A stretch of 64,000 nt of DNA from Marsupella aquatica (lineage: Eukaryota; Plantae; Marchantiophyta): the NCBI GenBank assembly GCA_973895155.1, contig OZ316895.1:2591659-2655658 (forward strand). Direction: 5' to 3'. Below are positions 3,405 to 45,340 of the stretch, one piece after another. The notes below the pieces were generated by a model, which was not told where the DNA came from, ran no database searches, and worked only from the letters and a program-made list of their open reading frames with translations. The position numbers and the translations under genes are program-made. Numbering within the stretch: the stretch's first letter is position 1; every line of letters starts with the position of its first letter.

Positions 3405-3700
3405 AATAAAAGAACACCCCAAGAAGGGCAGCAGGGCAAAACACCCCTGGGGACAACAGCCAAATCAATGGCAAGTTAAAATAAAATAACACCTCACAAC
3501 AGGCAGCAGGGATAAACACTCTGGGGACAACAGCCAAATCATTGGCAAGTAATAATAAAAGAACACACCAAAATGGGCAGCAGGGCAAAACACCCTGGGG
3601 ACAATAGCCAAATCAATGGCAAATCAAAATAAAAGGGTACCCCAAAAAGGACAGCAGGGCAAAACATCCTGGGGACACAACAGCCAAATCAATGGCAACA
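3405..3700. repeat. Tandem repeat, ~4 copies of a ~75-bp unit
   Basis: cagcagggcaaaacac(c)ctggggacaacagccaaatcaatggcaa recurs at ~3429, 3504, 3578 and 3652. Confidence 0.85.
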
Positions 3701-15500: not shown

Positions 15501-15517
15501 CGCTATTGATAGATAAC

Positions 15518-20599: not shown

Positions 20600-23305
20600 A
20601 TGAAAGAAATCCGTCTACATGGGAAAGGCGCCCTTTCTACTGTACTGAGCTCGGGTGGTGAATTGGCTGAAAATGTGGAATCGCCATACAACCATGCTTT
20701 GACTCTCTCATGGAAGGAGTTGTTCTACACTGCTTCGTCGCTCGACAAGCACTTGAGAGTTCCCAAATTCCTCAGCTCATCAGCGTTGAACTATAAACCT
20801 CGAGCGGGATCTAGCACTCACGCGGACAGGAACGGTGGTACAGTAATGGCGGAGATGAGAGATCCAGAGATGCGAGATCCAGAGGTGAGGTTCGATAGAT
20901 CGTCGGAAACAGTTGACAAGTCAGATCGAGATGGCCAGGTAAAGGTTCAACATACTATTAATCCCTCTTCTTATCCCGGGGAGCCTGACGTTACAACGAG
21001 ACTCGCTGAGGCCAATTTTCAGCTGGCCATCTATATTGCAATGGCACATGCGGGATTGGCACTGGTGGTGTTGGTCATGTATGGATTAGGTCGACTCCTG
21101 AAGGACTTCTGGAAGCCAATTCAATGGGCTGTGCTGTGCTCTATGCCTCTACGTGAGGTGCAAGAAGCTTTGGTCACGTTCTGGAAGGAACCACTGCGGA
21201 AGGGGCTCGTGGAAACAGTAGTTGCTGCACCAATTGCTCTGTACAAGGTCTTGCTGGGCACGTTACTAGACGCGCGGGAGGGAGTGTTAAGATTTGTGGG
21301 AAAGGGGCACAGTTTTGGCCACCCAAGACCTGTGGGTTTCGCCAAGCTGTTCCAGTGGTTGGTTTCATTTGGCTTCTTTACTCTGGGTCTAGACGTTTTG
21401 GGCCCGGCCAATCTCTCTCTCGTTGCATTTGCTGGGCTTCTCATGTACGCTGCAGGAACTGGATTCGAAGTCTCGCAACTCACCACTGCCTTCTCTCAAA
21501 ATGGTAGGCTGCATCGTGACGACGGCAAATTGAGGTGGGTTAGCTGGGTCATGGGGCCCATTACTCGAGCTTCGAGGTCTGCTAATCAGCAAATTTCTCG
21601 TTCCCTGATCAGCAGTCTTCACACGCTGGTGGCGATAGGGTTGATCACCACTATGATTCTGGGATCTTTGGGAGGATTGGCACTCTTCTCCTATAAAGTG
21701 GGTATGGAAGGAAAACACGCAGTGGTATTGATCAAGGTGCATCTGGAGGAGAACGACTATGCGGAGGTGGTGGGATTCAACAGGTGGGTGCAGGACAACA
21801 GAGTGCCCGAGCTGATCGATACGTATGTCGGCAAGGGGTATGAGGCGCTGGTGGAGCAGGTCGATGCATTTGCGGCGAAGAATAATCTCACAGATGTTGT
21901 GGATGTTGGAAAAGAGCTTCTCATGGGATTTGTCAGAGGGGATAGAAACGGCCATATGAATAAGACGGAAGATGACCAGGAGAACCCGCTGGTGCGAAGG
22001 CTTCGTGACTTGCAGTGTAAGGTGAACGAATTTGATTTCCAGGGAATTATTGCGGAGGTCGAGGCCACGTTCCTTCTTTTCCTGGAGCATTTCCAGATGA
22101 AGAGAGAGGATGTCCTGGAAAAAGTGAAGCAGGTGGCACAGAGGTCTACAGATGTTGGAAAGAGGGTTCTTAGCAGTGGCACGAACATGGTGACCAGCGG
22201 GGCATCTATGTTCTTCTTCGTGTCCAGTGCTATCGCATCTGGTGCTGCAGAGCTGTTCAACTTTGTAACTCAGTCTCTGATCTTCTTCTCAGTCCTGTAC
22301 TATCTCATCACGTCAAAGACTGGGGGTGTTATGGAACAACTTCTGGAGATGGTGCCTCTCTCGGAAGACACAAGGCGAGGTTGTGCGCATGTTCTTGATC
22401 ATGCCGTCAGCAGCGTCCTTCTAGCAACGGTCAAGACTGCATTCTTCCAGGCTTCTTTTACATGGCTGTTGTTACGATTCTGCGGTATACATTTCCTGTA
22501 TGGGTCTACGATGCTCGCTCTGGTGCAGGCATTCCTTCCTTTGTTTCCTAGCTGGCTCGCAAGTATACCGCTGGCAGTAGAGTTTGCTCTCAATTGGCAT
22601 TACATCGGAGCAATTTTGCTCTTCGGTATCCATGTCTGGGTGATGGATTACGGAATGGAGAAAATTCACAGCGAAATTCCTGGCCACAATGCTTATCTCA
22701 CTGGCCTCAGTATTGCTGGGGGAATGGCTCTCTTCACACCTGCTCTGGAGGTAAGTCGCTGGTGCTTCAAAATCGAAATCTGTCTGTACCACCGCTCTAT
22801 TCTGCACTTTTATTTGTCTTTGACCTACAAATACAAGAGGATGTTCTTGTTATCTTGCTGACCAAAACTCACCAGGAAGGCTCTGATAAATAACTGACCT
22901 GCGAATTTCGTAATATTGCCCTGTCTTTTCTCTTCTTGATATGCCTTCCATAGCCCTGTTCACTTCAATGAGTAAGAATTCTTGTTCCTTGAGTGGCACG
23001 ACTTCCGAATGCAAGGATTACTCACGTCAGGGGTTTTTCTGTTTAATAAACAGGGTCCGGCCATAGTAGGATTTCTTCCTTATAACTAATAGGAATCAGA
23101 GGTGTGCAACGAAGAACAACCAATATTTGCTCGTCATTTCTGATGCTTGGATCTGATCTTATCATTGATGTGATTGCAGGGCGCAATTATGGGTCCATTG
23201 CTCATGACAGTTCTCATAGCTGTAAAGAACTTGTATGCTGAGTTCGTATTGAGCGCGGAGACGGCTGTTGAAAGTCACGAGCACTCTGGCCCCAACAGCA
23301 AATAG
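20600..23305 (+). CDS. TMEM245-like / AI-2E transporter family membrane protein, 2 exons (20600-22750, 23180-23305); start may be 20600 or ~20846
   Basis: Multiple hydrophobic helices; plant TMEM245-type motifs LAIYIAMAHAGL, PIQWAVLCSMPLR and IPGHNAYLTGLSIAGGM. Donor gag|gtaagt at 22751 and acceptor tgcag|ggc at 23179 give the in-frame end ALE|GAIMGPLLMTVLIAVKNLYAEFVL..*. Confidence 0.9.
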
Positions 23306-27058: not shown

Positions 27059-27857
27059 CTGTTGGATTTTCGTGCAGCTTCCGAAACCGTTGGTAAGAAG
27101 TCAGGTTGACATTTGTGTTTGTACTAACTCTCCTACTTGAAGGTCGGCATCGTTAACCCAGTCTGGAAGACTTGTAACAAGTTATCCTTCCAATCACTGC
27201 TGAAGTTGCGAGATACAAAGCAATATATGAATCGGGGTCAGTTGATCTGCCTGAAGTTCAAATACCACATTTGTCAAGGATCTGAAAATGTAACTCGAGC
27301 ATGTCTCTTTCTCCTACCTCCTGGGATTATGTGAAACACCGTAAGCGCTTTTACAAGCTCTAATATTAAGTACTTGAGAGTGTATTTTGCATTATTTGCG
27401 CCTCGGGAGAATTAGTGACCAAGGAGCCTGTCATAGCGTGCTTTCCAGATTTTTACTTGACAAGACAGATGGTGGAAGGAAGGCCTCACATTCACGGCAT
27501 TCTCTTACAACTTCGATCCTTAGCTCGTACCTCTATAATCCTAACTTAAAAGCATATCCGAAGTGGTGGAAGGTGCAGTAAAGCTACTGTAATGACATCA
27601 TATTCCCGAGCGAAGTGAATGCTCCTCGTAACAAAATAGCTGTCCCGTCCGTCTGCAGGGAGAAATCGCACGGTGCAGGGCAAGGAACCGAGCAAGATTT
27701 TTTGTTCAGTTGCTTGTTAGATCCTGATAACCAGGAGTCCCGATTGCCAGAGAGACGTTCAAGTGAACTGCAAGAGCCATCATTGCAGACATTTTACTCC
27801 GTGAAATTCAAAGATCACTGAATGCTCGAAAAGCCGGTGAACAGACAGAGAGTGTGT

Positions 27858-28125
27858 AAAGCTAAGATTTCTGTGCTCTGCTTTGCCAAACTGCTTAAAC
27901 CAAATGAATTAGCGAACGAAAACGAGACGTGTTAGTACAGCTAACATTTCTGTGCTGAGCTTTGCCAAACTGATTGAACCAAATGTAGTAATGAACGAAA
28001 ACGAGACACAGTGCTATAGAGCTAAGATTTCTTCGCTGGAGCTTCCGAAAATGCTTCGACCTAGTTGCGAACGATTTAAAACGAGACAGAGTGTTGATTA
28101 ATAGAGCTAAAATTGCTGCCCCGGT
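27858..28125. repeat. Degenerate tandem repeat, ~80 bp x3-4
   Basis: agctaa(g/c)atttc..gctttgccaaactg..aaccaaatg..gaacgaaaacgagac recurs. Confidence 0.75.
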
Positions 28126-28326
28126 GCTCTAACAAAAGGCTTCAACCGACTCTAGGTGCGAACCAATTAACGAATCGAACGCAAGGTAACGCTTCTGCAC
28201 CAAGACAACAACGTGAGTTTAAAGCGCTACTGCACCAACCGTTCTTTGCCCCGAGACTGCTGGAAGGTCTGTTTCTTCGGCCCAGCGCTCTGTTTCTGCT
28301 GTGCTCCACTTCGTCTCCTCGTGGCC

Positions 28327-28427
28327 GGACCCCTCTGGCTTCATGAGTGTTGGTGGATTGGCTCTCGGCTGTTCCTCGGACCCCTCTGGCTTCATGAGTG
28401 TTGGTGGATTGGCTCTCGGCTGTTCCT
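28327..28427. repeat. Tandem duplication, 51 bp x2
   Basis: ggacccctctggcttcatgagtgttggtggattggctctcggctgttcct occurs twice. Confidence 0.9.
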
Positions 28428-29288
28428 GCGCCAAGTGACCAGCCCGCCCCGAGAAAGTGTAGGGTAACCCATTCCCAAGGGTCTCGGTAACTCCACATCA
28501 CATATACGATACACCCCTGCAAACAGAGATAACCCTAGTTTTTTTTTTTTCAATCAATGAATGCAGCCACATTTTGATATGTGAATACCATGTGTGATTA
28601 CCAGCAGGGCATTCCCAAGGGTGGTAATGGCTACCCGAAGAAGTGTAGTGTAGTGCCAGATGACACCTGGCAGCAAGGCCAATTGAGTAATTTTTGTTGG
28701 GTGTAAAAGTTTTTGAGCCATGTGCAGAAGGTTAGGCCACGCTTAATATTTTTTGACGCTGCTATAATATGGCGACTACACCTTTCAGGGTTTTGTATTA
28801 CCCAGATCTGTTGTGTATTTAATGTACATTCACAAGGTGCATCATTTGTGTTATGTAGATTTTGAATTCAATTCAACACCCTTCTTGATGTTTGTAATTT
28901 TTGCCATCCTAGAGCTCTTCTTCCCTCTCATTTTACATTTTAATATTGTCCATTAGCAAATTCTATCACTTGAGAGATATGTTCATTTCTTCTAATGAGT
29001 GATAGAAAGAAATGGTTCAAATTTGTAAACCGTGTGTATAGTTTCTTTTCATGATTTGTTTCCTAAGTTTATTGTTTTGATAGATTTGAGTGTTGTTATC
29101 TAAGGCAAGTGAGTATCTATATCTTATGCACACAAATCTTTGGTACCTTTGTACCACATACTTGTACTTTTCCATGTTATTATGTGGATTTTTGGTTTTT
29201 GCATATGTTGTACTTCTACTCTTGCATTTTATCACACTAAATCTTAACAAATGTTATGCTATAGCCAAAAACAAATTAGATCACCTAT

Positions 29289-29322
29289 AACACAGTGACG
29301 ACCAAATGAGAAGTGTGACCAC
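29289..29322 (+). repeat. Left terminal inverted repeat
   Basis: ~34 bp matching the reverse complement of 41954-41988 with 1 indel and 2 mismatches. Confidence 0.9.
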
Positions 29323-29439
29323 ACTTCTCGTTTTGCCCGCGGCGAAAAAAGTTTCTAAGGCAAAAAAGTCTTGGATACGGAATTAGTATTCCCACTAAAA
29401 ACTAGTTTTTCAAATTGAAAAAATGGGAAAAATCGACAC

Positions 29440-30185
29440 GAATACGAAGATGGGATACGGCGTATCCCATTTCGGATCCAACCGCGGAATTCCAAAAACA
29501 AAAAAACAAAATGCAGTAAAAGTGCCGATATTGGTTTACCCGACAAGAATATTCCAAAACAATTCTTCTCAACGGTAACATTTAACCGACTGCGATGCAA
29601 TTGCAGTCAAATACTAACCACGGTCAGTGAGAAAACTATAAATAGGAGATCACCGCTTGAGAATTTTACGCTCATTTTTTCTCATTCTGTATACTCTTAC
29701 TCTCGACGAATGCATACCGTCTATACAAACTCGTATTCCCCGAAAATCAGTTTTGACGAACAGGTGAGAATCTTCCTGAAAATGGCGAGGACGAATCCCA
29801 AATGGGATACGGCGTATCCCAAACCGTATCCCGTTTGGGATTCAACCCTCAAATTTCAAGTTTTTATTTCACATTAGCTAAAAAAGGAGGTTGGATGCGA
29901 AGTGGGATACCCAACCTCCGAATATGAAGTATCGTAGACTCCAAATGTCAAAACCTCAACGTTGAATGCGAAATGGGATACAGCGTATCCCGTTTGGGAT
30001 TCACTCTTCAAATGTCCAGTTTGATTTATCTTTAGCTAAAAAAGGAGGTTGGATGCGAAGTGGGATACGGGGTATCCCATGTCGCATCCAACCTGCGAAA
30101 ATGAAGCATCTTAGACTCCAAATGTCAAAACCTCAACGTTGAATGCGAAATGGGATACGGCGTATCCCGTTTGGGATTCACTCTT
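29440..30185. repeat. Left subterminal cluster of ~40-bp palindromes, including a ~177-bp tandem duplication
   Basis: gaat(g/a)cgaa(a/g)tgggatac-nnn-gtatccc..t(c/g)g..ttc at ~29441, 29793, 29963, 30051 and 30140; half site at ~29892. Confidence 0.9.
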
Positions 30186-30871
30186 CAAATATCCAGTTTT
30201 GATTGCCCATGTGGTATTTACCTAGAGTTTAAACCTTATGGATTACTGATTGTTTCGCAGGCGAAGTTCAACTGAACTGTACGCACTGAAGCTCTTGCTG
30301 CCTTTCAGTGACCGACACCCACTCAAGCTTAAGCTTTTCTTGAAAAACGAAGTTTTCTCTTGTGAGTCTAATGGCGGTCCAAATCAAAACCTTGAGAAAC
30401 ATGCTCGTCGATTGTATAAGCGATTAGTTGCACTCAAAGTTCTTCGTCCTGGATTAGGCGCGCTATGGACGGGAGGCGTGGATCCACATGATAGTTTGAA
30501 TCCACTCCGAATAGAGTTTTGTGAAAAAAATGAGGACGAAGTTCCAATTCGGTCGAGGATATGTTTGAGTGGTTGTCTGCACTCTGTTAATTCCTCTTGT
30601 AACTATTGTCGTGATGCCAAAACAAATATCATCGATTGGCATATTTTTGTTGTCGGATTTGGAACGAAGATCCTTGGGTTAACTTATCGCGTTGAATTTT
30701 CTTGATTAGTGTGTAAGTGTTTAGGTGAACGTTCTTGGGTCAAACATTTTGTGAATATATTTTTCTTTTGATCAAAGAAATAAAATCAGTTTTTCCATCA
30801 CTGTTTTGTAGGTTGCTGAGAAAGAGCTCACCATCTCATTAATTACTCCAGGTATCCACTCTTATTTTGGA

Positions 30872-31424
30872 ATGGCAGTCACTAAGAACCCTGTCTTTAC
30901 AAGGTTAGCGATGTCATTCGACAAAGAGAAGAAACAAATTCAACAAAAAAGTGGCCAAAGGGAATCCGGATTGCTTTTGGATGGACTTCCTGACGAGATT
31001 GTTGAAACGTTCATTTGGCCCATTTTGAAAGTTTGTTGTATAGAGGATGAGTTTGATTCCTCCAAGAACCAAGCTGATGAAAGATTGATGCGATTAAAAA
31101 CCATGGTGTGGCTTGGATGCACCTCCAAGAAATGGAACCAGCTCGTAATTTGTACACGAGTCTGGGGGTATTCTTAGACTAGCAAAAAGCCAGCTTGAGG
31201 AAGTAAATGAAATGCTGACAAGCATTCCCGATAGAAAACCCCTTCAGAATGTTTATATTGAAGCTTTTGTTAGGATGGAAACACCAAATCTTCCTCCAAT
31301 TGATTTCTTAGGTTTATTTTGAAGGTCTTACCTAAATCGATTTCAAGAAGACTGGCACAATCTTGAGAAAGATGAGCAAGCGAGGCTCTTGGAAATGTAT
31401 GGGGAAGCTTCTAGTCTGGTTTAG
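30872..31424 (+). pseudogene. F-box-like cargo gene, frameshifted
   Basis: LLDGLPDEIVETFIWPIL..LGCTSKKWNQLV resembles an F-box. After a frameshift near 31165 another frame reads GILRLAKSQLEEVNEML..F*RSYLNRFQEDWHNL.. Confidence 0.55.
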
Positions 31425-31899
31425 AGCCATCTTGAATGGGCTCTTTGTAAAGACTCTTTTTAAGAATATCAACTTAGTTTATTTTGTGGCACAATTCCGA
31501 ATGAATAAAGAGTTTTGTGATTACCCTAGCATCAACCCGATTCGCTACGCGTAAAATCTATTTGGTTGAATACAAGGACTTGGGGATATGCCTTATCTCT
31601 AGTCCCATCAAGAGAAAAAAGTATACATAGACATCCGGACTCCAACCCTACGCTTTTGGATACACATTATCGCCTGTGGAAACCTTATCGCCAGTGGATA
31701 CGAAGGTGATAAAGTATAAATAGGAGTGCCTGGTCAAAAAAATTACTCTCATTTCTTTTTCTTCTCAACTTTATTTGCCTCCGCGTTTTTCTTGGGCCGT
31801 AACATCTCTATAGCTTTTCGTATTTGCTCGAATCGAAACCAAAAAATAGGTAAAAACTGAAGAAACTCTCCCCTCCTCGTTTGGTTAATTGTTGAATCC

Positions 31900-32340
31900 T
31901 GAGAGGGATATGCCGTATCCCCCTTTGTATTCAACTCTATTATTTGGCCTTCTTTTCAATGTTGAATGCGAGATGGGATACCCTCTTTTTAGTCTTCCAT
32001 CCGAACCTCCTCGCTCTTTCTTGACTTTGAATATGAACTGGGATACCGTGTATCCCATTTCGCATTCAACTCCCTCTTTTTCGTGCTTTGCATCAGACTC
32101 GAGGCAATTGTTGAGGTTGGATGCAAAGTGTGATACCGCGTATCCCATTTCGCATTCAAGTCCCTCTTTTTTGTTAATTGCATCAGACTCTGGACATTTG
32201 TTGTTGTTGGATGCGAAGTGGGATACCGCGTATCCCATTTCGCATTCAACTCCCTCTTTTTTGTTCTTTGCATTAGACTTGGCAATTGTTGATGTTGGAT
32301 GCGAAGTGGGATACCGCGTATCCCATCTCGCATTCAACTA
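31900..32340. repeat. Palindrome array (~88-90 bp period, 5-6 copies), probably in the 5'-UTR intron of the cargo gene
   Basis: gttggatgcgaagtgggataccgcgtatcccatttcgcattcaac-type units at ~32030, 32116, 32206 and 32294. Acceptor ttttcag| at 32377 lies just before ATG 32382. Confidence 0.9.
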
Positions 32341-32381
32341 CTTTTGGTCTGGTTCTAAGTGTGTCAATCTTTTTCAGGATC

Positions 32382-35300
32382 ATGTCGAACAAATCAAAGT
32401 CGTCTGGTTTGACCCAGTCTTCACGAACATGCATCGTTGATGAGATTTGGAAGAAAGACCTTTACACGGAGGAGAAACTCGTGAGGAATAGGTGGTACTT
32501 CAGGGATGCTCGGGCGATGGATATTCACAGAGCCTATGAAGGTCCAGCGATGTGGTTGGTTAAAGTTAAGGGTAAAGACCATTGCCATTATGGATTAGTC
32601 ATGGACACCGGGGAGGCGGATATCACCGACTCAAAAACAAAATAGCTAAAGAAGATTCCAATGTACCTTTGCATTCTTCCAAACAATGCCTTCACTGTAG
32701 TTGTCCTCAACTACGAGAAACTGATCGGGTCTCGATGAACACATTTCCTGATGACCCAATCTGCCAGCTAATTTTGGAAGTGCCGGAGATTGAGGACTTT
32801 TCTTATTGGTGTTTGAAATTTGTCTTGAAGTCTTGGAGGGTTGTTGAGGATTTTACGAAGGTAGCGTATAGGTCCGTTGTTGGAGCCGACTTTGGCGTCA
32901 AAGAGCGGCCTTTGAAGTTGAAAGTGACGAAGCCTACCGATCCGGCTTCGAAGTCAGGGGAGATGTCTGGAACACCCTCGACAAAGGAGAAATCTGCCAC
33001 AGTTTCTTTTAAGGAACCGGCAAAGAGGAAGCTTGCAGATCAACTCTCCGGGGAAGGTTCTAAAGTAGCGGTGTCAGGAGAAGCTATTGTCAAGAAGAAA
33101 TTGGATTGACGTGACATCCAGAAGCACGCACCTTCTGCACCAGGAAGTGTTGTCTCATCTTTGGTCCCACCAATTTCACAGACACCTTCTCAGATTCCTT
33201 CAACTTTGTCAAGTGGGCCTTCTTTATCATCTAGGGGAGCTGTTAAAGAAAAGAAAAACGATTCAACAGATATCACCACAGCTTTGCAGCGGGAAGAGAC
33301 ACTTGTGGTTCGTGAAGAAGTGTCTCGGTTGATGGAGACTAAGCGAGTTCAGAAGACAACAGTTGTTCTGAAAACAACTAACCTGCTTCTTGTTGACGAT
33401 ATTGACGATGAGAACTCAACGTTGGTTCGAACAGTCGATCGGTTGCATGTGGAGAACATCAAGACTTTGATGAAAATGAATCCGATAAATTTCACGATGC
33501 CATTTGTCTTGTTTGTGATCCCCAAAGACTGCCCGACAGTGACAGACTGGGACCCAGAAAAGGCAACAAGCTGGAGATATCGAGTGATTGGAGGTAATCA
33601 CGGTGCTCGGGCTAAGAGAGAATTGTATCAGGCTTATGGGAGAGAGATCTTCAATGAACTCCAAGCTTGGATGTATGCTGGTCTCACAAGGGAGGACATT
33701 CAAAAACTTAGCATCCAACATAATATTGATCAGGAGTACAGGAAAAAAATGAACAACATTGATCAAATCCGAACAACGCATAAGATTTTCCTTGCCAGAG
33801 GAATGGCAAAAACCAAGGAGACTAGAGAAGCGTGTGCGATGGAGGTTTGCCTCGACGGGTTTTTTTCGGGGGATGCCACAAGCCTGAAGAAGCATGAGCC
33901 TCTCTTCCAAATTGCGTTTAGGTCAGGTAAGGTCTGGGAACTCCAAGACCAGATCTTTGAGATGTGGAACAAGTTGGAGATCAAAGGGCAGAATAAGCAG
34001 AAGTCACCGATCAAGAAACTCAAGAAAGGAAAGGGAAAAGCGCAGTCGATTCCAAAAGCTTTGAATAAGCTTGCAGGGGGCCTTACCTTGACACCTTGGA
34101 GAGCAATCCAGGGAATTGAACACGACCAATTTTTTGAGTCCCTTCTTCTCCGAGTGAAGGACCGGATGATCTCTTTGGAGCAGATGGCAAAAGAAGCCGA
34201 GAGTTACAAGAAACTTGTGAAAATCAGCAAGCTTTTTGTTCAGTTGTCAGGGCAGCCAGACTGGGCGACTTGCAAACGAATGTTTCCGAAAGAAACAGAA
34301 TCTGCCGAGCTTGAAAGATGGAGTGGGAAATTGTCCGATGTGGTATGTTCTCCCCTTCCACTAATTGGACTTTTCTATTTGTTTTGCCATGTTCGGAGGT
34401 TTTCTTCGTGGATTTCTTGTTGGATGCGAAGTGGGATACGGGGTATCCCATCTCGGATTCACTTGTGCTTATTTGATGTTGGTGATATTTCAATGCAGTT
34501 TTTTCTTGGTTGAATGCGAAGTGGGATACGCGGTATCCCATCTCGTATTCACTTGTGGTTATTTGACGTTTGTGATGTTTCAATGTGGTTTTTGCTTGGT
34601 TGAATTTGAAGTGGGATATGCGGTATCCCATCTCGTATTCAATGTGGTTATTTGACGTTTGTGATATTTCAATGTGGTTTTTGCTTGGTCGAATGCGAAG
34701 TGGGATACGGGGTATCCCATCTCGGATTCACTTGTGGTTATTTGACGGTGGTGATGTTTGACTGTGGTTTTTGCTTGGTTGAATACGAACTAGGATACGG
34801 AGTATCCCATGTCGCATTCGTCGTCCAGATTTGATTGTTTGAATTCCTAAATGGTTATCTCCCCATTGTCTTTCCTCCAGATTCTTTTAACAAGTTTGCG
34901 TTTGCAGTTGAAAGCTTTTTCGAAGAAGAAGAACAAGGATGCAATTGGTGCCGATGCGGTTGAGAAGCCTACGGAGGAGCTGACTTCGAGTGTTATTCCC
35001 CCAGGGTTTAAGAATTACGTTCAAGAAGCGATTGAGAACTACAACCGTCGTCGTGGGATTGAAACGGTTGAAGTAGAGTCGAGTGACCATCGATGGAAAA
35101 ATGCTGATGGAAATTTTATCAGATATACATTGCATTGTGGAGATGTCAGGGCGCTGGATAAGTTTGTAGAGAAAAGGAATTACACACTTGCAATTGCAGA
35201 CATTCCTTATGGATTCAATGCGCCTGGCTCTGAAAATGATGAGGTCCCATTTTCAGAGAGTGATATTGTGGATCATATGGTAAATTGTTTTGCCAAGGTG

Positions 35301-37042
35301 ACAAGTTCAAAGATGTGGAGGTTTGTTGTGATTCACTCTTTGCAACAAACTTGGTCTGTGATGAATGCTCTTGGAAAAACTTGTAACACAGGTGTAGAGG
35401 CTGGAATTTGGGAGAAGACAAATGTACATGCTCATCCTTCCGGGAATCGATTGGCTTGGGCTTTTGAAAACTGGTCAATCGGATATTATCACGAGAGTGG
35501 TATTAGGACCAGAGACATGTATAATTTTGAACATGATGAGAAAAGGGTAAACATCATAAAAGTCCCTTGTGTTACAAAAAATGTGTAACACCATTGGGAG
35601 AAATAGTGAACCCTTACCAGAAACCGATAGCTCTAGCAGATTGGTTCGTTCAACATTTTAGTGAAGCAGGGGATTGGGTTGCTGATTTATGTGCGGGGAG
35701 TGGTTCGACCTCATGCGTTGCCTTGTTAGGGAAACGTCCGGTGATAGCCGTGGAGCTCAGTGCAAGCTAGGTGGATTGTATCCGGACCCGACTTGTCACG
35801 CTTGATGAATCGTGGGACTTGAATGATGAAGCAACCGAGGAGGGTACAGGACCCATGAGCTTTGAGGTTCAACCACCTATTGGTGGTACTACGAGCACCC
35901 TCACCACTGGAACTTGCATTATTACAACCGCGGAGGAGAACGATAATGATGAGGATGAAGAGGATGAAGTGGAACATGAAGCTCCGGCACTTGATCTTGG
36001 CTCATTCCTTGAGGTGTAAACTTAAGTTTGATTAGTTCTCTCATGTTGTATCTATTGATCCAAATTTGTGAAATATTGAGGAAGATTATGATTGGACTAT
36101 GTTCTTATTTCACAAAGTAATATCTTTGCAGGAACCAAAGGAGGATTTTGTATTGAAACATGTTTTGCATAGATTCTCACACAATCCTTCTAGTGGATTT
36201 CTTTTGGACAATAAAACATTGAGCCAACTTAAACCCAGTCAATATTTGGGTGATGAAATAATGGAATTTTACCCACAATTAATAACCGAGGAACATGAAG
36301 ATCTGGCTCCCTCGATAAACACATTATCCTTTTTTTTTACCCTTGGCTTGTTTCAAGGATTGAAACAGAACCAGCTGAGACCTTGTTGGAATCAATTCAA
36401 AAGATGCAGAATTATTACAAGCCACCATTTTCCCAAATTGAGGTCATTCTCATGCCAATTCACATGAGCATGCACTGGAGTCTGGTTGTAATATGTTTGG
36501 ATCGGATTGAATCTTCGGTCAAAATGTATCATCTAGACTCTCTCGCCAGTCTACACTCAACCCATGTAATTGGATCAATACTGAGCAGGTACGTATATAT
36601 TATATTACATTTTTTCAATTTGAATTTATTTATGTGGTACATAAATATAAACACTTTGGACTAAGAACTTTGAATGATAATTTGCAGATATTTTACAATG
36701 GAATGGGAATTATTTTTTGGAAAAGTTCCAATTGGAGTTGTGGAGATATACAATCAAATGGTAAGGATTTGAAAAGTTATTTCAACTTTTATTTAGTTCA
36801 ATTATTAAACACTTTGGAGTAACTTTAAGATTCTTTCTCAGGTACCCCAACAACCAAACAATTCACATTGTGGTCTATTTGTTCTTCAAAATATGGACGA
36901 AATCATAATTCAATGGCATATTACACAATGCCTTGATGCACAGTCTTTATTTACTGAAAAATGGTACAATTGTAAAAGAGCATGTAACCTTAGAAAATTC
37001 ATTCGAGATCAAATTCTAAAATTGATGCATGTACCTGTTTAA
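32382..37042 (+). pseudogene. ParB-like domain + beta-class N6A/N4C DNA methyltransferase + Ulp1/C48 SUMO protease fusion gene, 5 exons, disrupted
   Basis: Exons 32382-34342, 34881-36013, 36132-36588, 36688-36760 and 36842-37042 join in phase at GT..AG. Motifs: YRVIGGNHGARA (ParB/Srx-like); LHCGDV..IADIPYG (motif IV); NPYQKPIAL..SEAGDWVADLCAGSGSTS..VIAVE (motif I); LKPSQYLGDEIMEFY, MPIHMSMHWSLVVI, HLDSL, VPQQPNNSHCGLFVL (Ulp1 H-D-Q-C). Lesions: in-frame stops at 33107 and 35768; frameshifts near 32640, 35578 and 36335-36385. Confidence 0.85.
34420..34820. repeat. Palindrome array, 5 copies at ~90-bp period, inside intron 34343-34880
   Basis: gaatgcgaagtgggatacg(g/c)(g/a)gtatcccatctcg(g/t)attc-type units at 34421, 34511, 34601, 34690 and 34780. 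Confidence 0.92.
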
Positions 37043-37053
37043 GGACATCAATC

Positions 37054-40000
37054 TCAATCCTCTGAGTGTGCAGAACCTCTCTCTAATATAGCAGACTCTA
37101 TAATTTTTTTTAGTTTTTGCTGCTATTTGATTAGTACTTAAAAGCGCAAAGTTGTATGCATACACCGCTGTTGATGATAGAACTAGTTCATCTTGGAGAA
37201 GTCGATTAGATATATTATCTTTCTCTGGAAAATATTTCCCATCAATAGCAGACTCAGCACTTGCTTCAGTTGTGTACCATGTGATTTTGATTCTCTCAGG
37301 AATGTCTGCAGTTCTTGTCAAAATCTTTGACATCTTTGCCATCCAAAACAACTTGCCTTCTAGATCCTTGTGTGCCGCTACACATATCATGGACCACTTA
37401 TTGTTAACTTCCATATCTCTGAAATCTCCAAATTCAGCTTGCTTTCGTCGAGGTCCGGAGTAGATAATTCTCTGTGGTCCAGCAACTTTGTCAACCAAAG
37501 TTGGATCAACACCTTCTTCAACAAGTTCATTTCTCACCCTTGGAAGTAGTTGTGCACCTTGATTTTGTTGCGGCCAAACCCACTCAAATAACCACTCACC
37601 TTCCTCTAGGTGGTTTTTGATAATATCTTTTTGTTTCTCAAAAAAACTCATCCACCAAAGTTTATCTTCATTGTCAAAGTAATTGAAACCTTCCTGGATA
37701 GCTTTTTCATATTTCACCAGAGTAGTTAATGCACCATCTGTATTGGAAGAAACATGGACATCATCCCTCTCAACACCTTTTGCTGACTTCAATGACATTT
37801 ATGCAGCAACCCACATTCTTGAAGTTGGAATGTAATTGACAAACGTCACTGCATCTCCCCAATCCTGGGTCGTGGAAAGATGTTTCCCGTGAAATGTTGT
37901 CTCTTCGTTTTCATCCTCCATGACTCGTTTGAATCTGAATTGCCTTTGAAGTTATGAGATTGAGATCTCTCAAGACTCTACCTGAGACTCCCTTCTCATT
38001 TGGCTGGTCGTTTTCATTGAGAAATTTTTGAAAATCGGCTACTTCATCCACAAATATGATCAAAGCTTCAGGTGAATATGCTCGTCGAATAATATCTTCA
38101 AGAGTCTCCAAGCGAAATGCTTTGTGCTTGTTTAACCTAGACAACAATTTACTAAACATCTGATCTATCTGGTCATGTGTATGACCGACCAACAAGAAAC
38201 CCACTTTAATCTTGTCAAAGATCTTCAAATCTACTAACATGTGAAGCTAACCCATCAAGAATTTATTCTTGTTTTCCCGAGTGGTATTATCTAATTGAAG
38301 ATATAACACTCTTGGTAATGTCCCATCCCATGTATTCAATACATTTTGAATAACATGTATGGTCAAGTTTGCATCATTATGGATATTGGGATATGTCAAA
38401 AATACTTTTGCTACAAGGTTCCTGTCGAAGATGAGACAACCTACAACATGTATTGGAATGAAATACTTTTCATCCATGTTCTTTGGACAACGAAGAAAAT
38501 GTGGTAGCTCTGTTTTCTTTTGATCCATACCATCTATACAAATACCCAAATACTTGTTGGGCTCATCATAGCATTTTTTACGATGCTTGGCTAACTTCAT
38601 CATTTCCAATGATTGTACTTTTCGATGCTCCATAAGGGCATTGATATACTTTCCTGAAATGATACAATAGCAATGAATTAAAAATCAATAACTAAGGATA
38701 AACTTTGACAAATATTGAATTACATGTCATCAAATTAAAGTTGAAGGTTATAGTTAGTGGAACTTACTTTTATCCTCTTCAGTTGTTGCTTTGTCCCGAA
38801 GAGCCTTGAATTCAGTACAAGGACCACAAGTAGAAAATCAACTCCTTTTAGGAATTCGTACATTTGGAAACTTTTTTTTCCAAACATGCAAAAAATAAGA
38901 ATATGTAACTTGTTGTTCTTCTCGCAACATTGTTTCAGCTTCAAAGATTCCATGTATCTCTTGCTTTGTCCAATTGTCTGACAAGTGATGAATCTCTTTA
39001 TGGGGAAGACTATCCATATTTTTTTGGAAAAAATCTTTCAACCATTCCACCAACTTTAGAAATGAAGGTGAGTCTTCCTTACAAAAGGTATCTCGTTCAA
39101 TCCTTGTAAACATGTTTGCATGGATTGTTGCCAATCTATTATTACCTAAAGAATATAGTTTCTTGAATCCTCCTCTACATATAGGTTGTCCATTTACACT
39201 ATCTCCACGAGAAGTACTACAGTTGTTCATGATACAACCTCGTAGCAAAATATTTTTTTGAAAGTGTTTAAGACCAAAATAATACTTGTGTTGTTTTGAG
39301 CATTCCTCTAGACCCAGAGACCTCAAGCAAAACTTGTCACAATAGGGATACTTAAAAATATCTTTAATTTTGCGTTTTTTTAGATTTGCAATGGTAAGTC
39401 TATCTTTTCTAATCATCTAATCTCTGATTTTCTTGTTGGGTCTTGTCACCTCTACTCTATCCTGAATAGTGTCAGGAGAACTTACCCCCCCACTATTTTC
39501 TAGTGAATTAGAATTTAAAACAAAAAGATCTTCTGTATAGTTGTTTCCACTCTCCACATTTTCTGTAACTGTTTCATGAACAATCTCACATCCCAGGATC
39601 TCTTCAACAACATTTGAGATTACAACAGTCTCTCTGTCATTTGCAGCCTCCTCTGATCTCTCTTCAGAGTCTTCTGAAAATGTAATAGGTGTTCGGAGAT
39701 TTCTAGTTTGAAATCTTCTAATGATATTCACATCTTCAGTCGGAGTACCGCCCACTTGTCTCTGAGACTATAATCCCAACCTAGGTGATTCTTCTCGACT
39801 TGAGGGCTCATCTTGACCATTGAATAATTTTTGGACAAGTTTCAATTTAGCATGTACCCTTGAATTTTCGGGCCCTCTCTCCGACAGCTCACTTCGCAAT
39901 AATCTCCGAGGAATTTTTTGGACACTAGATCTCTTCCCTCTTTCGTTCTGCACTTGCCGTCCAATGGAAGATCCAAAAACCTCACACTGCATCCTCGCCA

Positions 40001-40901
40001 AAGGGCTTCGAAGTCCCATGTTGTTAGTTTTACCACTCGGTGAAATAACTGATGGGAATACTGATTGGGATCCATGGATCCCAACTCGTATTCGTCCTTC
40101 GGGACTTCGAAGTGAAAAATTTCCCACTTGCTGTTCTGCGTCATGACTTGGTAATTTTCCATTGCGCAATACAAACTGGGATCCGCGTATCCCATTTTGC
40201 ATTCCACCATCGGAACTCGGGTTGGAAGTCCGCAAGACCGGTGACTCGGGCACAGGATTCTACAAAATACCACGAGGGAATACTAAGTGGGATCCATGGA
40301 TCCCACTTCGTATTTGACCCAAGGAATTTGGTACTGAAGGAGACGAAATAGGCAATTCGCGTTCACCGTTTCTCAACATTCGAGTAGGGAATACCAAGTT
40401 TGGCTCCAAGGCTGCCCCTCCCTGCAATTCTGGCAAATTTTGACTCCTCATTCGCTCAAACTGTGATTGAACACTGGACACAGCTATCTTCACTCCCAAA
40501 GAACGAGACATTGGAAAAACCAACGGAGATCTTCGGGCGGGCCTACATGGTAACGTTGTTCTTGGCATTAAAAACCGGGGCCTTCGCCTTTGAAGATCTG
40601 TCGGGGTTCGCGATGAACCAAGTGTCTATGTCGTAGGAACTACATTAGGCTTCTTTACAAGTAGACGTCGTTTAAGAGGTTTACTTGGAGAGACATAGTA
40701 TGAAATCGGAGCACCCACAACACTCCTACAAGACTCTGAATCAGACTCTGATTTCTCAGATTCTGAGGAAAATGAAATCTCTGGCACTACTCTCTGTGAG
40801 GCTGGTAATTCATTCATCAAACGAGATGGAATAAATTTTTGAACAACATCTGGCAAAGATGCATTTGAACTGTAAATTGACTCATCACTTGAAGACGCCA
40901 T
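37054..40901 (-). pseudogene. Sola-like (DUF7869-type) DDD/E transposase, 2 exons (intron 38654-38767), disrupted
   Basis: One frame runs from ATG 40901 to the donor at 38767, broken only by in-frame stops. Motifs: CDKFC; VWKKKFPNVRIPKRS*FSTCGPC; CIDGMDQKKTELPHF; LYLQLDNTTRENKN; FLLVGHTHDQIDQMFS. The phase-1 intron restores EEDKR-KYINALMEHRK. Confidence 0.85.
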
Positions 40902-41279
40902 AGAGAATCAAACAAGGGTTGTATAGGAGTACGTATTCGTATCCAACAGAGAAAATTCAGATTACAGTATTCTATGAAAACAACTACTCAATACTGAATG
41001 AACCTCAAAGTAATCGCGAGAAATGAAGATGAAAAACAGATGCGAGCTCTTCCTTTTATAGTTTTCGGGGGCATTGGACACGTGGCATTCCCTGATTGGT
41101 CCGTACGAGGGTTTTTTCACGTGAGAGTTTGTCTTTTCAAAGAATGCTGAAATTTAAATTGTAGATTTTTGAGGAAGTCGCCATGGATCTTAGTTGGTCT
41201 TCAAACTGGAATATCAAGGTATGCGATGCAAAAACTTCAAAATGTAGAGGTTATCCTCTTATTTTCCCGATCAGTTTTT

Positions 41280-41875
41280 GGACTTGCGAAAAAAATGGGA
41301 TCCATGGATCTCAGTTGGTATTCATGTTGAAAGATCTCCTGATGCAAAGTTGCAAGTGGAAAACATTGAGGTTGAATACGATAGTGGATACTTGGATCCC
41401 ATCTCGTATTCATCATGCGTTATGGGCTAAAAAATTTCCGGACATGTCGTCGGGTTAACTTAACTAACTGTGTGGTTCAACTGTAGTCCGCGGTCAGTTT
41501 TTCGCAGTTTTCAATTTTACCGCAGTTAAAAATTCAAACATTTTTAACCTGAGGTTACATGGAAGCGTCAAGAGAATGATTTGGTGTGGTTTTCGTCCAT
41601 GTTCAATAGTTGAATCTGAAATGGGATACGCCGTATCCCATTTTCAGTTTGCCATTTTGATGGCGAAAATGAAATCTTGTGTTTTACTCGTTTTGTTTGA
41701 CGCTCAGATTTAGCTTTTAGAAGGATCACGTGATGAGCATTGTTTTTCCAGGTTTTGGAATTTGCACTTTTTTTAGATGAAGTGTATCAGAATTCTGGAT
41801 TGTGACAATTCTGTGTTTTTGCGTCGACAGTATCTCGATTTGAAATCCGATGTTGGATGCGATTTTGGATTCATC
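41280..41875. repeat. Right subterminal palindromes
   Basis: tgggatccatggatctc ~41297; gaatacgatagtggatacttggatcccatctcgtattc ~41374; ctgaaatgggatacgccgtatcccattttcag ~41616. Confidence 0.8.
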
Positions 41876-41953
41876 CTCAAAATAGCGTTTTTGATCTTAA
41901 TTTTAGTGATTTTTTGCTGTTTTTCGCGAAATTGAAAACACACTTCTCGTTTG

Positions 41954-41988
41954 GTGGTCATACTTCTCGTTTGGTCCGTCACTGTGTT
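41954..41988 (-). repeat. Right terminal inverted repeat
   Basis: gtggtcatacttctcgtttggtccgtcactgtgtt, followed by the TSD ctat. Confidence 0.9.
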
Positions 41989-43841
41989 CTATGCATCACT
42001 ACAAGACCAAAAATGGAATGTTTTAGGATGAGCATGCTATATTGAAGAGCACATTTGGTTGAGCTTTAAAAAACAGACTTTCCGGGCATTTTGCAATGGG
42101 GTAGGAAAACCCAAAATATACTCTGCATGATTGTGGGTATGCTCTAGAGACTGAAAATGTTGGGATTCATGGTAACCTATTGTCATATTGCTTATTGACA
42201 AAAATCACAAGGCAGCCAATGCAGCAACAAGTAGACAATGTTGAGGAAAACCAGTGATATACACACATGAGAGACAAGCAAGAAGCTCATACACCAACAC
42301 ACAAGATACGTGGTTCGCCGTCGTCAAGGCTATGTCCACAGAATACTAGAGCTTTACTAAACTTTGGCAACCACGTCACACTAACCCTCCAAGTACAAGC
42401 CCCCCTTAGCACTAAACTTGCTCCTCCAAGAATGAGCAAGAGTCTCCATGAGGACTAACTCCTTGCTCCCCTATATGCTAGGCACACTAGTCACAACTAA
42501 TCATCATTAAGTCCCTAATGCCAATTAGTCTAAGAGGTTAATTGCGACTCAAGAGTTAGCCCGAACAGACAATTACACAGCCTGATGAGTCTGCAGAGGA
42601 GCAAAGTCAGCACTTCATGAGCTCAGATGTGTGCCACACGATTGTTAGCACTAAAACCAGAAACAGACATGTTGCACGATAGCAGTTAAAATCTAATTTG
42701 GCAGTGGTGATTTTTCATCGAAATCATATCCATTCCTAGCTTGGCACGGGTGTATTTATTTATATTCAACCACACAGTTGCATGGCATGGTTTCCCCCAA
42801 CGCTATGTAAATATTTATTGGTTCATACATAAATGTCATTACCTACAGTAGGGTGGTAGCCAAGTGGGGCTTGGGCGACAAGCTGTGGCCAATAGAGGGC
42901 TTGAGTCTAAGAGTGTCTATCTAATGTCTCCCTAAAAAACTTTGCTGCAGCTATCGAATTTTCTGGCAGTGCTTTATGGTACAGTGTCCCACCCTAAATG
43001 CAACCCTGGGGTTCCCGGAATTTGGGCTTAGGGAGTACTTGAAAGTCTCAAGAAGTGAAATTTAATGGCTAACTGCAATAATCAGTAAATGCACACATTA
43101 CTTAAAGTTTTGCAATTCCTATGATTCCATTTTTTTTGGCACTTTTCAATTAGTGCAAGGATTGTACTAAAATTATAGCAACAAGTGAACTTAGAATCAA
43201 GCCATGCAAATCCATAGTAAGAAAGAACTAATGGCCCCCCCTTGAGAGTTGCCAAAATGTGCAAAGTTTCTGTTGCCAATGCATGAGAATACCCAGGTGG
43301 CAAATCTTTCATTTTGAGAGAATCTGTGAGAAAGTAATGAACCCGCCTATGTGCATCCTACTAGCGGGGGCAGTTGGGGCCCACCTTTCAAGTCCAAAAG
43401 AGCATCAGCAAAAGGTGGTGGTGCTGTAAGTATATACTAAACCCTTGTGTACAGGGCATTGTGGGTTGGAATGCCTTGAGGGGTTATTATTTCCCAAAGT
43501 GCTCTCGTGACAGGACCTTAATACACTTCAGCCTTAGGTTTCATTTTACTAAGTTTAGTTAAAGTAAGAAAAACTATCACAATGACTCCAAATGAAAGTG
43601 GAATATACACACTTTTTATAGAAATGGACCAAACAGAGTACAAAAGAACAAACAAAAGAGGGTCCAAGTGGACAAAACCAATCGTAAAAGAAGTGAGCAA
43701 AAGGGAACCCCTAAACACCAAGAAAGAGGAACTAAAAATAAGAAATGAGCAATAGGGAACCCCTAGAAACCAAGAAAGAGGAACTAAAACTAACCCAAAC
43801 GGACCGAGGTCCTCATAATTCCTAGCAAATGTGGCAAAAAG

Positions 43842-45340
43842 CTAATGGTCCACATCAAGTGTCAAAACTAGATCGGCAAGTGGGATTGGAACATCCTCTA
43901 GGGGAGCTAGCGGCTGTGGAGGCACACTAGCACCCACTGTAAGAGATCGACGATAGATGGCCTGAGCTTGAGCACGCTGTAAGATGCCTGAAATGCGTTG
44001 GCGAAAGTGCATGGTCAAAACAGATAGCGGGGGTCCAGTGGGACCCATTCGGCCATGAACATCCTGGGCAGCTTGCCGAAGAAGCCCATCAAACTGAGGA
44101 TGAAGACGCCCGAATAGCTCCAGAGCAAGGGGGAGGAAGCTGTCTGATGAAGCTTGTGCAACATATTTGGCCTCCTTCGTTGTTGCCGCACGTGACGCTG
44201 CTGCCCTTGCCGTTGTTGCCGCTGTCCCAATGATGTCTTGGCGCATGGGTTTGCCACCATTACATCTGCCAAAGTACGTTGACCCTCATGGACCATGGTA
44301 AGATCCACCCATAACTGCTGTGATGGAGGACCAGGTAACTCGAGTACCACCTCCCCCCACACACATACCAAAGAGCCAGAGAGAACTTGAGCAGTTGCAT
44401 CTTGCACAACGTCGTGAACAATAATGGTTTCACCTCCCAAACTGCACCGAAGAAGATGGACACGTGTGGCATCACAAGGCTTCCCACAAGTGCAAGAAGT
44501 GGGTGGGGCAGCCCCATACAAAGACGCATGGCTGTGGAGAACTCCACTGAAGACATCCGCAAATGATGAATGACTGGATTGGCCTGAAGCCATCCTCCTA
44601 TGCCCTTCCCTCCGGATGAAAGAATCCAAGCTCGGTCCATGTTAGGTGCCTCGGAGAGGATGCTGGAAAGGGTGAAAGCGTGCATATGCCTAGTGAGGTC
44701 TGCCTGAAGACGGACGGGATCCAAAGATAAAAACTCCTGAAAAGAAGGTAACGCAGCGCAAACGGGATCTGGTAAAGATGACCGCACCGTGCGCAAATGA
44801 ACCTGAAACGGGAGGGAACCCTCCTCTACCTCCATGAGAGATGAAAGTAAATTAAAAAGGGCGATCCTCAGTAAGGAAACGATCGGCCAACAATGAGAAG
44901 GCGGCCGCCCACGTGCCCAAAAAGGCCAAAGGTGCAAGGTTCTCAATGGAAGTAAGCCCCAAACCATCCTGAGAAATAGGAAGACCGAGTTGTCGATGAA
45001 GCCATAGAGATGAGAGCAATGTCCCCAGCCCTAAAAGAGAGGCCAAAGTCTCACAAATGGAGACATCAAATGCTCGAAGGTGGAGACAAAGATCCTCGGT
45101 AGGGGGATGCGTCCTAGCCAGATAAGACGCACGAGGGTGGATGCACCTCAACAACATCCCAAATGCTGCCTAAGAATCAGCTAACTTAGGGAGCATAGGA
45201 GTAGGGGCTAAGGCAGCTTGTAAAGCATCAGCAATGAAAGATGAGCAAAAGGAGGCGGTATCGACTGGGGAGCCAAGGACCCGAAGACCATCGGTTGAAC
45301 GTAAGAACCCTGGGGGAAGCGCAAGATCAAATCTTGACTG
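43842..45340 (-). mobile_element. 5'-truncated, frameshifted RLE-type non-LTR retrotransposon (CRE-like)
   Basis: Post-RT motifs LRVLGSPV, LPISQDGLGL and WLQANP..FSTAMRLCMGLP; zinc knuckle CTCG..HLLRC..HD; restriction-like endonuclease D..ADV..K..KY..FLPLALELFGRL; C-terminal RISGILQRAQAQAI. Confidence 0.85.

Follow-up and report, generated by a model that had tools for sequence, protein, structure and literature searches.

The closest described counterpart of the locus analysed here is Sola1-1_Ec32 of Ectocarpus, a Sola1 element with a 4-bp target site duplication (TSD) and, on the strand opposite its transposase, a gene coding for a ParB-like domain and an N4C/N6A methyltransferase (MTase), for which self-binding and self-modification were proposed (PMC12477816). 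Plavaka elements of the red alga Bostrychia moritziana contain a ParB-like gene, an N6_N4_Mtase gene and tandem inverted-repeat arrays proposed as ParB sites (bioRxiv 10.1101/2025.02.11.637652), and ParB-HTH-fused MTases are described from chlorophytes and chytrids in a paper whose available text mentions no element of the present type (Iyer 2016, PMC4738411). Transposon-borne ParB-methyltransferases have hitherto been a sequence observation only, in algae. For the VANC proteins of VANDAL transposons, the recognized motifs are found in introns as well as upstream regions, with a turnover that proceeds through tandem repeats (PMC5735166), and some Arabidopsis VANC genes carry a captured Ulp1 domain (KIU; PMC13317346). 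In bdelloids, a captured amino-MTase marks transposable elements (TEs) for silencing, not activation (PMC8885841).

Within the window, by which we mean the whole 64-kb stretch of land-plant DNA analysed, a 12.7-kb element lies between matched terminal inverted repeats (TIRs; 29289-41988) flanked on both sides by CTAT (Table 1), and its ends proved to be intact, as the preliminary description had proposed. The 34/35-bp TIR pair is identical in 32 of 35 columns, with one gap and two mismatches. Finding a perfect inverted 12-mer flanked by a 4-bp direct repeat is not by itself decisive for element ends because 3 of the 337 inverted 12-mer pairs in the window have such flanks; the end assignment is confirmed by the 35-bp TIR match, a jump in sequencing depth and nine contigs of run X3 that end loose at exactly 41988 and continue into unlike sequence (agreement 0.46), the left boundary being placed by the TIR/TSD match and the depth jump, without loose ends. 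Both TIRs carry a repeated word, ACTTCTCGTTT, that is distinct from the internal palindromes. A Transib/RAG-type interpretation of the TIR's internal CACAGTG was rejected, as with a CAC terminus the adjoining AA/TT belongs to the inverted repeat and is not a duplication.

Table 1. Coordinates of the element's features in the window, with the basis of each assignment.
Feature	Position	Strand	Basis or remark
Left TSD copy, CTAT	29285..29288	none	4 bp
Left TIR, AAC... terminus	29289..29322	+	1 base shorter than right TIR; 32/35 columns match right TIR
Five bipartite palindromes near left end	29452..30168	none	Flanking TATA-like site at 29637
Broken ORF, weak F-box-like motif (LPDEIV...), identity uncertain	30911..31463	+	Pfam F-box E 0.16
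Five palindromes, four in a 90-bp tandem array	31905..32324	none	TATA-like site 31715 on one side, gene B start on the other
Gene B exon 1: N-terminal domain, low-complexity linker, ParB-like + HTH region (about 33278-34339)	32382..34342	+	tblastn; predicted fold of relative L005
In-frame GT-AG intron of gene B	34343..34907	+	Palindrome-bearing counterpart in L001-L005
Five palindromes in a 90-bp tandem array	within 34343..34907	+	In gene B in-frame GT-AG intron
Gene B exon 2: putative beta-class amino-methyltransferase, DIPY then DLCAGSG, acidic tail	34908..36019	+	Pfam, profile matches, tblastn
Ulp1/C48 protease region, three in-frame exons (36132-36588, 36688-36760, 36842-37042)	36132..37042	+	Pfam; His-Asp-Cys residues
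DUF7869 DDD transposase, two exons (40901-38768, 38653-37054)	37054..40901	-	Pfam; motifs DGMDQ / QLDN / GHTHDQIDQ
Three palindrome variants, 16-bp core, 111-bp spacing	40067..40304	none	In low-complexity part of transposase exon 1
Three palindromes near right end	41297..41639	none	Upstream of transposase TATA-like site 41060, minus strand
Right TIR, ...GTT terminus	41954..41988	-	TIR match; loose contig ends at 41988
Right TSD copy, CTAT	41989..41992	none	4 bp

Copy number was estimated from four public sequencing runs (X1-X4), in all of which the element stands at roughly 7-30x single-copy depth, every bin of it being multi-copy. Element contigs reached depths of 214-298 versus 17-22 for unique flank contigs in X1, 472-700 versus 33-38 in X2, 474-731 versus 49-69 in X3, and 2020 versus 57-71 in X4. 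Junctions of the insertion at the window's own site were recovered on the left in X1 and on the right in X1, X2 and X4; no empty CTAT site was present among the joints listed from the runs, and a TIR pattern scan of metagenome contigs returned 0 matches. Every gene of the window copy is broken by stops or frameshifts, and the copy is a dead, decayed member of a multi-copy family of cut-and-paste DNA transposons. Its stops (TAG/TAA/TGA), two of which, at 40262 and 37801, were compared with other copies, fit C-to-T decay, as would be expected if host 5mC silencing had prevailed over this copy.

The DDD/E transposase of the preliminary description was upheld by two DUF7869 matches in the window (Pfam E 2.5e-21 and 5.7e-18). 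The motifs DGMDQ, QLDN and GHTHxxxD are present here and in 86, 106 and 100 of 120 homologues, respectively, and their Asp residues presumably form the catalytic DDD triad. The open reading frame is not intact in the window copy, having seven in-frame stops and two frameshifts, and other copies differ at several of these positions. No PDB sequence matched the transposase, and DUF7869 was not mentioned in the literature searched. With its 4-bp TSD, TIRs with AAC...GTT termini and predicted DDD triad, the element is Sola1-like.

Gene B lies on the opposite strand. Its first exon, broken by frameshifts and one stop, begins with an N-terminal domain common to the window and the related loci L002 and L005, for which there was no match in Pfam, NCBIfam or Atlas, and the exon 1 region shows DUF3723-like features. 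The window's own ParB region matched no Pfam or NCBIfam family, and the ParB alignment matched no PDB sequence. For L005, which is 46% identical to the window region, we obtained an HTH_ParB match (E 8e-4) and an AF2 model (pLDDT 89.8) whose top Foldseek matches were ParB/Noc, with TM-scores that are low (0.23-0.37 by query); an earlier AF2 model from six sequences (pLDDT 54.8) was left out. A predicted ParB fold of gene B is supported by way of this relative. ParB CTPase clamps carry a GxRRxxA arginine patch and an EN motif. In the ParB-like domain the patch is mostly lost, reading GGNH[S/G/T]xxA with position 116 never commonly Arg in 55 rows, which makes CTP clamping and spreading doubtful; the EN motif is replaced by H/D-N, while Asn156 is retained in 54 of 55 rows, and Arg56 is retained in 34 of 39.

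The second exon has an N6_N4_Mtase match in the window (Pfam E 4.7e-8) and profile matches to M.RsrI, CcrM and N4C MTase entries (E 1e-4 to 7e-4), with motif IV before motif I; its lesions are a frameshift near 35579 and a stop at 35768. A catalytic motif of the form D-[I/V/L]-P-Y was found in 23 of 27 homologues, the other four lacking or altering that stretch, and a DLC.G.G-type SAM-binding motif also in 23 of 27. Because the catalytic motif departs from the canonical DPPY/SPPY, both MTase activity and the target base (N6A or N4C) are putative. Some distant homologues have no clear catalytic motif. An in-frame intron joins the two exons, and a ParB-like domain and N6_N4_Mtase occur in one protein in 8 of the 40 longer homologues scanned, the fused homologues being named from Chara, Riccia, Adiantum and Ginkgo, with Holothuria through a cluster member. 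The order ParB-MTase followed by convergent DUF7869 recurs in L001, L004, L005 and L006, and in Riccia sorocarpa the tags R1sor_010795 (DUF7869) and R1sor_010796 (ParB-like + MTase) bear consecutive numbers. Between L003 and L004, dN/dS is 0.07 for the MTase and 0.06 for ParB, synonymous sites being saturated or nearly so in between-family comparisons; the ParB-MTase cargo of the related elements is under purifying selection.

Downstream of the MTase, the Ulp1 region gave Peptidase_C48 matches above the cut-off (Pfam E 3.1e-9 and 2.3e-4), matches SENP2 and reads HW...DSL...HCG in the spliced frame, the His-Asp-Cys triad of C48 proteases, with SUMO or NEDD8 as the putative substrate. Its GC content is low (33%), 11 bp separate its end from the transposase stop, and it has one frameshift, near 36330. 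A 945-bp contig (35804-36747) at ~12-14x single-copy depth crosses from the MTase into Ulp1, and therefore the cargo belongs to the family; that other copies share it was one of the points on which the preliminary description had staked its reading. Of the ParB-MTase-Ulp1 fusion claimed there, the ParB-MTase part stands, through the in-frame intron and the fused homologues, whereas the joining of Ulp1 is no more than a possibility: the MTase reading frame ends at 36017-19, its natural stop and the position where relatives' MTases also stop, so that fusion requires a splice at 36014-36131, where a candidate intron would join the two in frame. All four relatives spanning the interval between MTase and transposase lack Ulp1, which is therefore a lineage add-on. 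The F-box match fell short of the cut-off (E 0.16; 12.4 bits versus 20.5), and a search of PDB sequences found no F-box chain; the open reading frame is multi-copy by depth, and its break positions, 31164 and 31321, read differently in other copies. With a weak F-box call and an Ulp1 missing from relatives, the ubiquitin/SUMO toolkit as a whole is an addition of this lineage.

A rival explanation is that the locus is a chance composite, in which unrelated insertions and captured gene scraps came to lie between two ends without joint function. The window copy is heavily broken, no single contig in the run assemblies spans the whole element, and the Ulp1 and F-box-like parts had no match among ten loci; nor did these parts or the gene B N-terminal region match in the fetched proteins, a weak comparison with sets gathered by other queries. 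We nevertheless regard such a composite as very improbable, given that all bins are multi-copy in all four runs, that the 945-bp contig crosses the MTase-Ulp1 junction, that transposase and ParB-MTase are linked in four other elements, and that one palindrome recurs in every part of the element except Ulp1 and the 3′ transposase block.

That palindrome, GGGATAC-N2-4-G(T/G)ATCCC, occurs 21 times inside the element versus one weak match in the 51 kb outside, in agreement with the roughly 20 copies first reported; across 100 shuffles the count averaged 0.14 and never exceeded 2. Eighteen of the 21 occupy the element ends, introns or the upstream regions of the three genes. The region at 31905..32324 is a probable 5′ UTR intron of gene B, and a reading of the 90-bp arrays as coding repeats was ruled out, the arrays being intronic. 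Among the window and its relatives, three families have three different 16-17-bp palindrome cores without cross-occurrence, each on its own branch of the MTase tree, and in all three a [G/C]AAT (SAAT) arm is kept 19 bp from the palindrome centre (22/32, 40/68 and 12/30 half-sites versus 0.2-0.7 expected). The number of independent families is three, as one core is common to five of the six close relatives and repeats inside a family are non-independent. No palindrome family was seen in the distant, short loci L007-L009, and in L010 two sites have a fourth core and lack the SAAT arm. This combination of variable core and fixed arm across three families is a new detail.

The palindromes could be subterminal and internal transposase sites that pair the ends, with ParB-MTase otherwise employed, for example to bridge the 12-kb element or condense it. 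Plant TIR elements commonly have subterminal transposase motifs, 8 of the 21 sites lie within 1.1 kb of one or the other end, and the transposase also varies with the families and so could be the palindrome reader. We consider this explanation unlikely, since ten sites lie deep inside, in the gene B upstream region and intron, with equivalent placement in L001-L005, the TIR word would be a more natural transposase site, and a 16-17-bp dyad suits an HTH dimer.

The reading that we favour, with somewhat better than even confidence, is that ParB-MTase binds its own palindromes and methylates DNA at them, so that each family has a self-recognition mark to itself. From the self-marking and anti-silencing idea put forward earlier, self-recognition through the element's own palindromes is thus retained as the best reading, backed by the family-specific palindromes in relatives. 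A ParB-like dimer would read the core through its HTH region, much as bacterial ParB reads the 16-bp parS, and the C-terminal MTase domains would act on or near the conserved outer [G/C]AAT arms, N6-methyladenine being the more likely product given the Asp at the start of the catalytic motif. The most likely benefit would be VANC/VANDAL-like, with element promoters kept active against host silencing, since 18 of 21 sites sit at ends, upstream of genes or in introns. Ulp1 would be a later capture, set directly behind the MTase and probably spliced on, in parallel to the VANC-Ulp1 (KIU) genes, and the F-box-like frame would be a further passenger.

The same binding might have the opposite outcome, with ParB-MTase restraining its own element, or the MTase might have lost catalysis and serve as a DNA-binding scaffold. 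Promoters can be repressed by ParB bound near them, and the non-canonical D-[I/V]-P-Y motif, together with its loss of clarity in some distant homologues, would suit a dead enzyme. The 4mC made by bdelloid N4CMT is tied to TE silencing (PMC8885841). Both variants seem improbable to us, however, as strong purifying selection has preserved the SAM motif (23/27) together with the Asp, Pro and Tyr of motif IV, and fast core turnover fits an arms race better than self-restraint. The family is a concrete target: its two-part palindrome has a variable core and a fixed arm and comes in three versions, each linked to one of three protein lineages. If the favoured self-recognition reading holds, it would supply plant genomes with a local source of 6mA or 4mC and be the second example of a self-recognising transposon protein to which Ulp1 has been attached. 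Far more tentatively, land-plant Sola1-like transposons may run a prokaryote-derived epigenetic code private to each family, in which a ParB-HTH dimer reads an exchangeable 16-17-bp address, the fused methyltransferases place N6-methyladenine on the constant [G/C]AAT arms 19 bp away on both sides and, in the present family, a spliced-on Ulp1 removes SUMO from silencing factors at these sites. If true, the anti-silencing strategy of VANC/KIU would have been invented a second time, independently, and programmable, site-addressed DNA methyltransferases could be drawn from these transposons.

The architecture, first taken to be undescribed, has published precedents in its core design, for Ectocarpus Sola1 (PMC12477816), and in the pairing of ParB with repeat arrays, for red-algal Plavaka (bioRxiv 2025.02.11.637652). 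Our literature search found no paper uniting all parts; Iyer 2011, the original Sola paper and Repbase lay outside its scope and may describe moss members. Like Sola1-1_Ec32, the window element is a giant transposon of Sola1-like type with a 4-bp TSD, AAC...GTT termini (AACCG-CGGTT in Ectocarpus, AACAC-GTGTT in the window) and an accessory ParB-like + MTase gene opposite the transposase strand (PMC12477816). Compared by description, the brown-algal element is 21.5 kb long with a 282-bp imperfect TIR, whereas ours is a 12.7-kb land-plant element with a 35-bp TIR; palindromes and Ulp1 go unmentioned in the main text on Sola1-1_Ec32 (PMC12477816). The Bostrychia Plavaka is likewise a giant DNA transposon with a ParB-like accessory gene, an MTase and repeat arrays, but has an EnSpm/Plavaka transposase and separate genes for a fusion of ParB with a 2OG-oxygenase and one of the MTase with SET, and the available preprint text does not mention a family-specific core with a conserved outer arm (bioRxiv 10.1101/2025.02.11.637652). 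VANDAL/VANC and KIU offer the parallel of an accessory protein, family-specific motifs in introns and upstream regions, and Ulp1 capture; VANDAL differs in being a Mutator-like element whose VANC (DUF1985/DUF287) is not ParB/MTase-like and whose motifs are short and non-palindromic, and anti-silencing has been shown for VANC, whereas for the window element it is suggested by an analogy of layout. Bacterial ParB/Noc supplied the top fold matches and M.RsrI, CcrM and N4C MTases the profile matches, with motif IV likewise before motif I; unlike bacterial ParB-parS systems and beta-class MTases, the predicted protein has mostly lost the arginine patch, has no ParA, uses DIPY, and is encoded with introns on a eukaryotic transposon.

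The element is a decayed 12.7-kb Sola1-like copy whose TIRs are identical in 32 of 35 columns, with CTAT duplicated at both flanks as a 4-bp TSD. Because two further inverted 12-bp pairs in the window are likewise flanked by a 4-bp direct repeat (3 of 337 pairs in all), its ends required independent support, which we drew from contigs of four public sequencing runs (X1 to X4) in two studies. At the left edge, summed depth in the four runs rose from 65, 168, 56 and 205 (bin 28602-29152) to 832, 4951, 3665 and 11455 in the following bin, and on the right side it dropped to 46, 155, 115 and 248 (bin 42377-42927), while nine X3 contigs left the window sequence at exactly 41988 and continued into unlike sequence. 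The matched TIRs and the CTAT TSD of the preliminary description are thus upheld, and the element is a real feature. Individual contigs within it had ~7-30x the depth of unique flank contigs, a ratio that gives no true copy number; one of the four runs might come from the source sample itself. The junction between the MTase tail and Ulp1 was crossed by one 945-bp X1 contig (depth 242 vs. 17-22), and the F-box-like region was similarly deep. This multi-copy depth marks the cargo as a family property shared with other copies and not a chance nest, making a chance composite highly improbable. Among contigs of the four runs none spanned the whole element; the window differs from the other copies at several of its break points, so intact family members may exist.

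Features of the element and its surroundings (window positions)
Feature	Coordinates	Strand	Description
Element	29289-41988		ends are TIRs, CTAT on either side
DUF7869 transposase	40901-37054	minus	two exons; three Asp motifs
Gene B		plus	N-terminal domain without family match, probable ParB-like domain, in-frame intron, beta-class amino-MTase
Left-hand repeat	27500-28601		multi-copy, depth ~1,500-6,600 in bin 28051-28601; includes 79-bp and 51-bp tandem repeats
Right-hand repeat	43479-44000, 44015-45030		immediately right of element; very high summed depth (12,696-147,686); broken minus-strand ORFs beside it resemble retroelement remains
Long host-type ORFs	15416-18346, 20600-22861, 55448-56992		presumably RING-finger, multi-pass membrane and F-box/kelch-like (named from motifs)

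The DUF7869 match and Asp motifs agree with the DDD/E transposase already suspected; its start is backed by N-terminal homologues, and its frame is disrupted by 7 stops and 2 frameshifts. Named relatives (~26-60% identity) are mostly from Riccia, with others in Adiantum, Chara and marine invertebrates, and TSD, termini and triad support probable Sola1 membership. Three palindromes at 40067-40304, inside the coding exon and spaced 111 bp (37 codons) apart, encode repeated G[I]xGS peptides; a homologue, P0157, has similar repeats (GAIPVSD) at its transposase N-terminus.

The middle domain of gene B, the accessory gene, is predicted to be ParB-like from the AF2 model of a related locus, L005 (63 sequences, pLDDT 89.8), whose top Foldseek matches were ParB and Noc, with E-values from 2e-5 upwards and low TM-scores (0.23-0.37); L005 itself had an additional weak HTH_ParB match. 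The arginine patch is mostly absent. The MTase matched profiles of M.RsrI, CcrM and N4C MTases, and its catalytic motif, D-[I/V/L]-P-Y in 23 of 27 homologues, is non-canonical. The ParB region search gave 160 proteins, and 8 of the 40 longer homologues scanned also matched N6_N4_Mtase, among them proteins of Chara, Riccia, Adiantum and Ginkgo and a cluster with a sea-cucumber member. In the comparison of L003 with L004, the MTase had a dN/dS of 0.07 and ParB one of 0.06. Two homologues have other layouts: P0173 (Chara braunii), a 1825-aa model with two tandem ParB-like+MTase units, and P0198, possibly a domesticated or re-shuffled form, with a fused N-terminal SAM domain.

Ten related loci were found among metagenome contigs, six of them close and, judged by contig name, all from one assembly. 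In the four reaching the next gene (L001, L004, L005, L006), a convergent transposase lies beyond the MTase and Ulp1 is absent between them (4/4 for each); the spacer is ~320-470 bp in L001, L004 and L006 versus ~1030 bp in the window element. Riccia has a DUF7869 protein and a ParB-MTase on consecutive locus tags (R1sor_010795, R1sor_010796). In the window, an Ulp1 domain with its triad follows the MTase in three in-frame exons. As for the proposed ParB-MTase-Ulp1 fusion, the MTase frame ends at a stop position common to the relatives' MTases, so that fusion would need an extra, putative splice; the F-box-like gene was not sustained, its ORF scoring only E 0.16. The Ulp1 and transposase stops face each other 11 bp apart (37040-37056), so 3' UTRs would overlap opposite coding regions; the palindrome array of the relatives' spacer is absent here.

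We counted 21 palindromes (GGGATAC-N2-4-G(T/G)ATCCC) within the element, where ~20 had been claimed, versus one weak one outside; shuffles gave 0.14 each, and 18 of the 21 are non-coding. Relatives carry arrays at equivalent places but built on different cores: L001-L004 and L006 share GCGAGAC-N2-GTCTCGC, with 3-10 sites per locus, whereas the 15 sites of L005 have CCGAT-N6-ATCGG. None of the three cores was found in another family. On an MTase tree of 23 rows with several long branches, the core groups occupied separate branches, with L001-L004 a starred clade and L005 and the window (placement not starred) elsewhere. These palindromes could instead be transposase sites, which we consider unlikely. 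Kept in all three families is [G/C]AAT beginning 19 bp from the palindrome centre, at 22/32 half-sites in the window (16 sites with a 3-base spacer; 4/6 for three short-spacer sites), 40/68 and 12/30 (expected <1), counts within one family not being independent; three families do not prove co-evolution. A distant MTase locus has a fourth core upstream (L010:77-168), CGAGATAG-N3-CTATCTCG, where the SAAT arm is absent.

On balance, we lean towards a reading in which a ParB-HTH dimer would bind its family's own core and the fused MTase would mark neighbouring DNA, probably at the adenine of the fixed arms, which may keep element promoters usable. Against such self-marking count the non-canonical motifs, the C-to-T-type decay of the window copy and the silencing role of N4CMT, an amino-MTase captured in bdelloids (PMC8885841); that the ParB-MTase serves self-restraint or is a dead scaffold seems improbable.

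Among published systems, inverted-repeat arrays adjoin ParB cargo in Bostrychia Plavaka elements (bioRxiv 2025.02.11.637652), motifs of VANC, the accessory protein of Arabidopsis VANDAL elements, lie in upstream regions and introns and turn over via tandem repeats (PMC5735166), and Ulp1 is present in some VANC genes (VANDAL/VANC/KIU: PMC5735166, PMC13317346). Our literature search found no work joining Sola, MTase and Ulp1; sources outside it that could bear on novelty are the first description of Sola, Iyer 2011, Repbase, and the Ectocarpus FASTA and Bostrychia supplements. The architecture had been put forward as not known to be described; Sola1-1_Ec32 of Ectocarpus (PMC12477816) already pairs Sola1 with an opposite-strand ParB-like+MTase gene, for which its authors proposed self-modification, and the supplement gives a 4-bp TSD and AACCG-CGGTT termini. 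The window element resembles it in that gene and TSD (PMC12477816), and its new points are a family-specific palindrome built of two parts and the added Ulp1.
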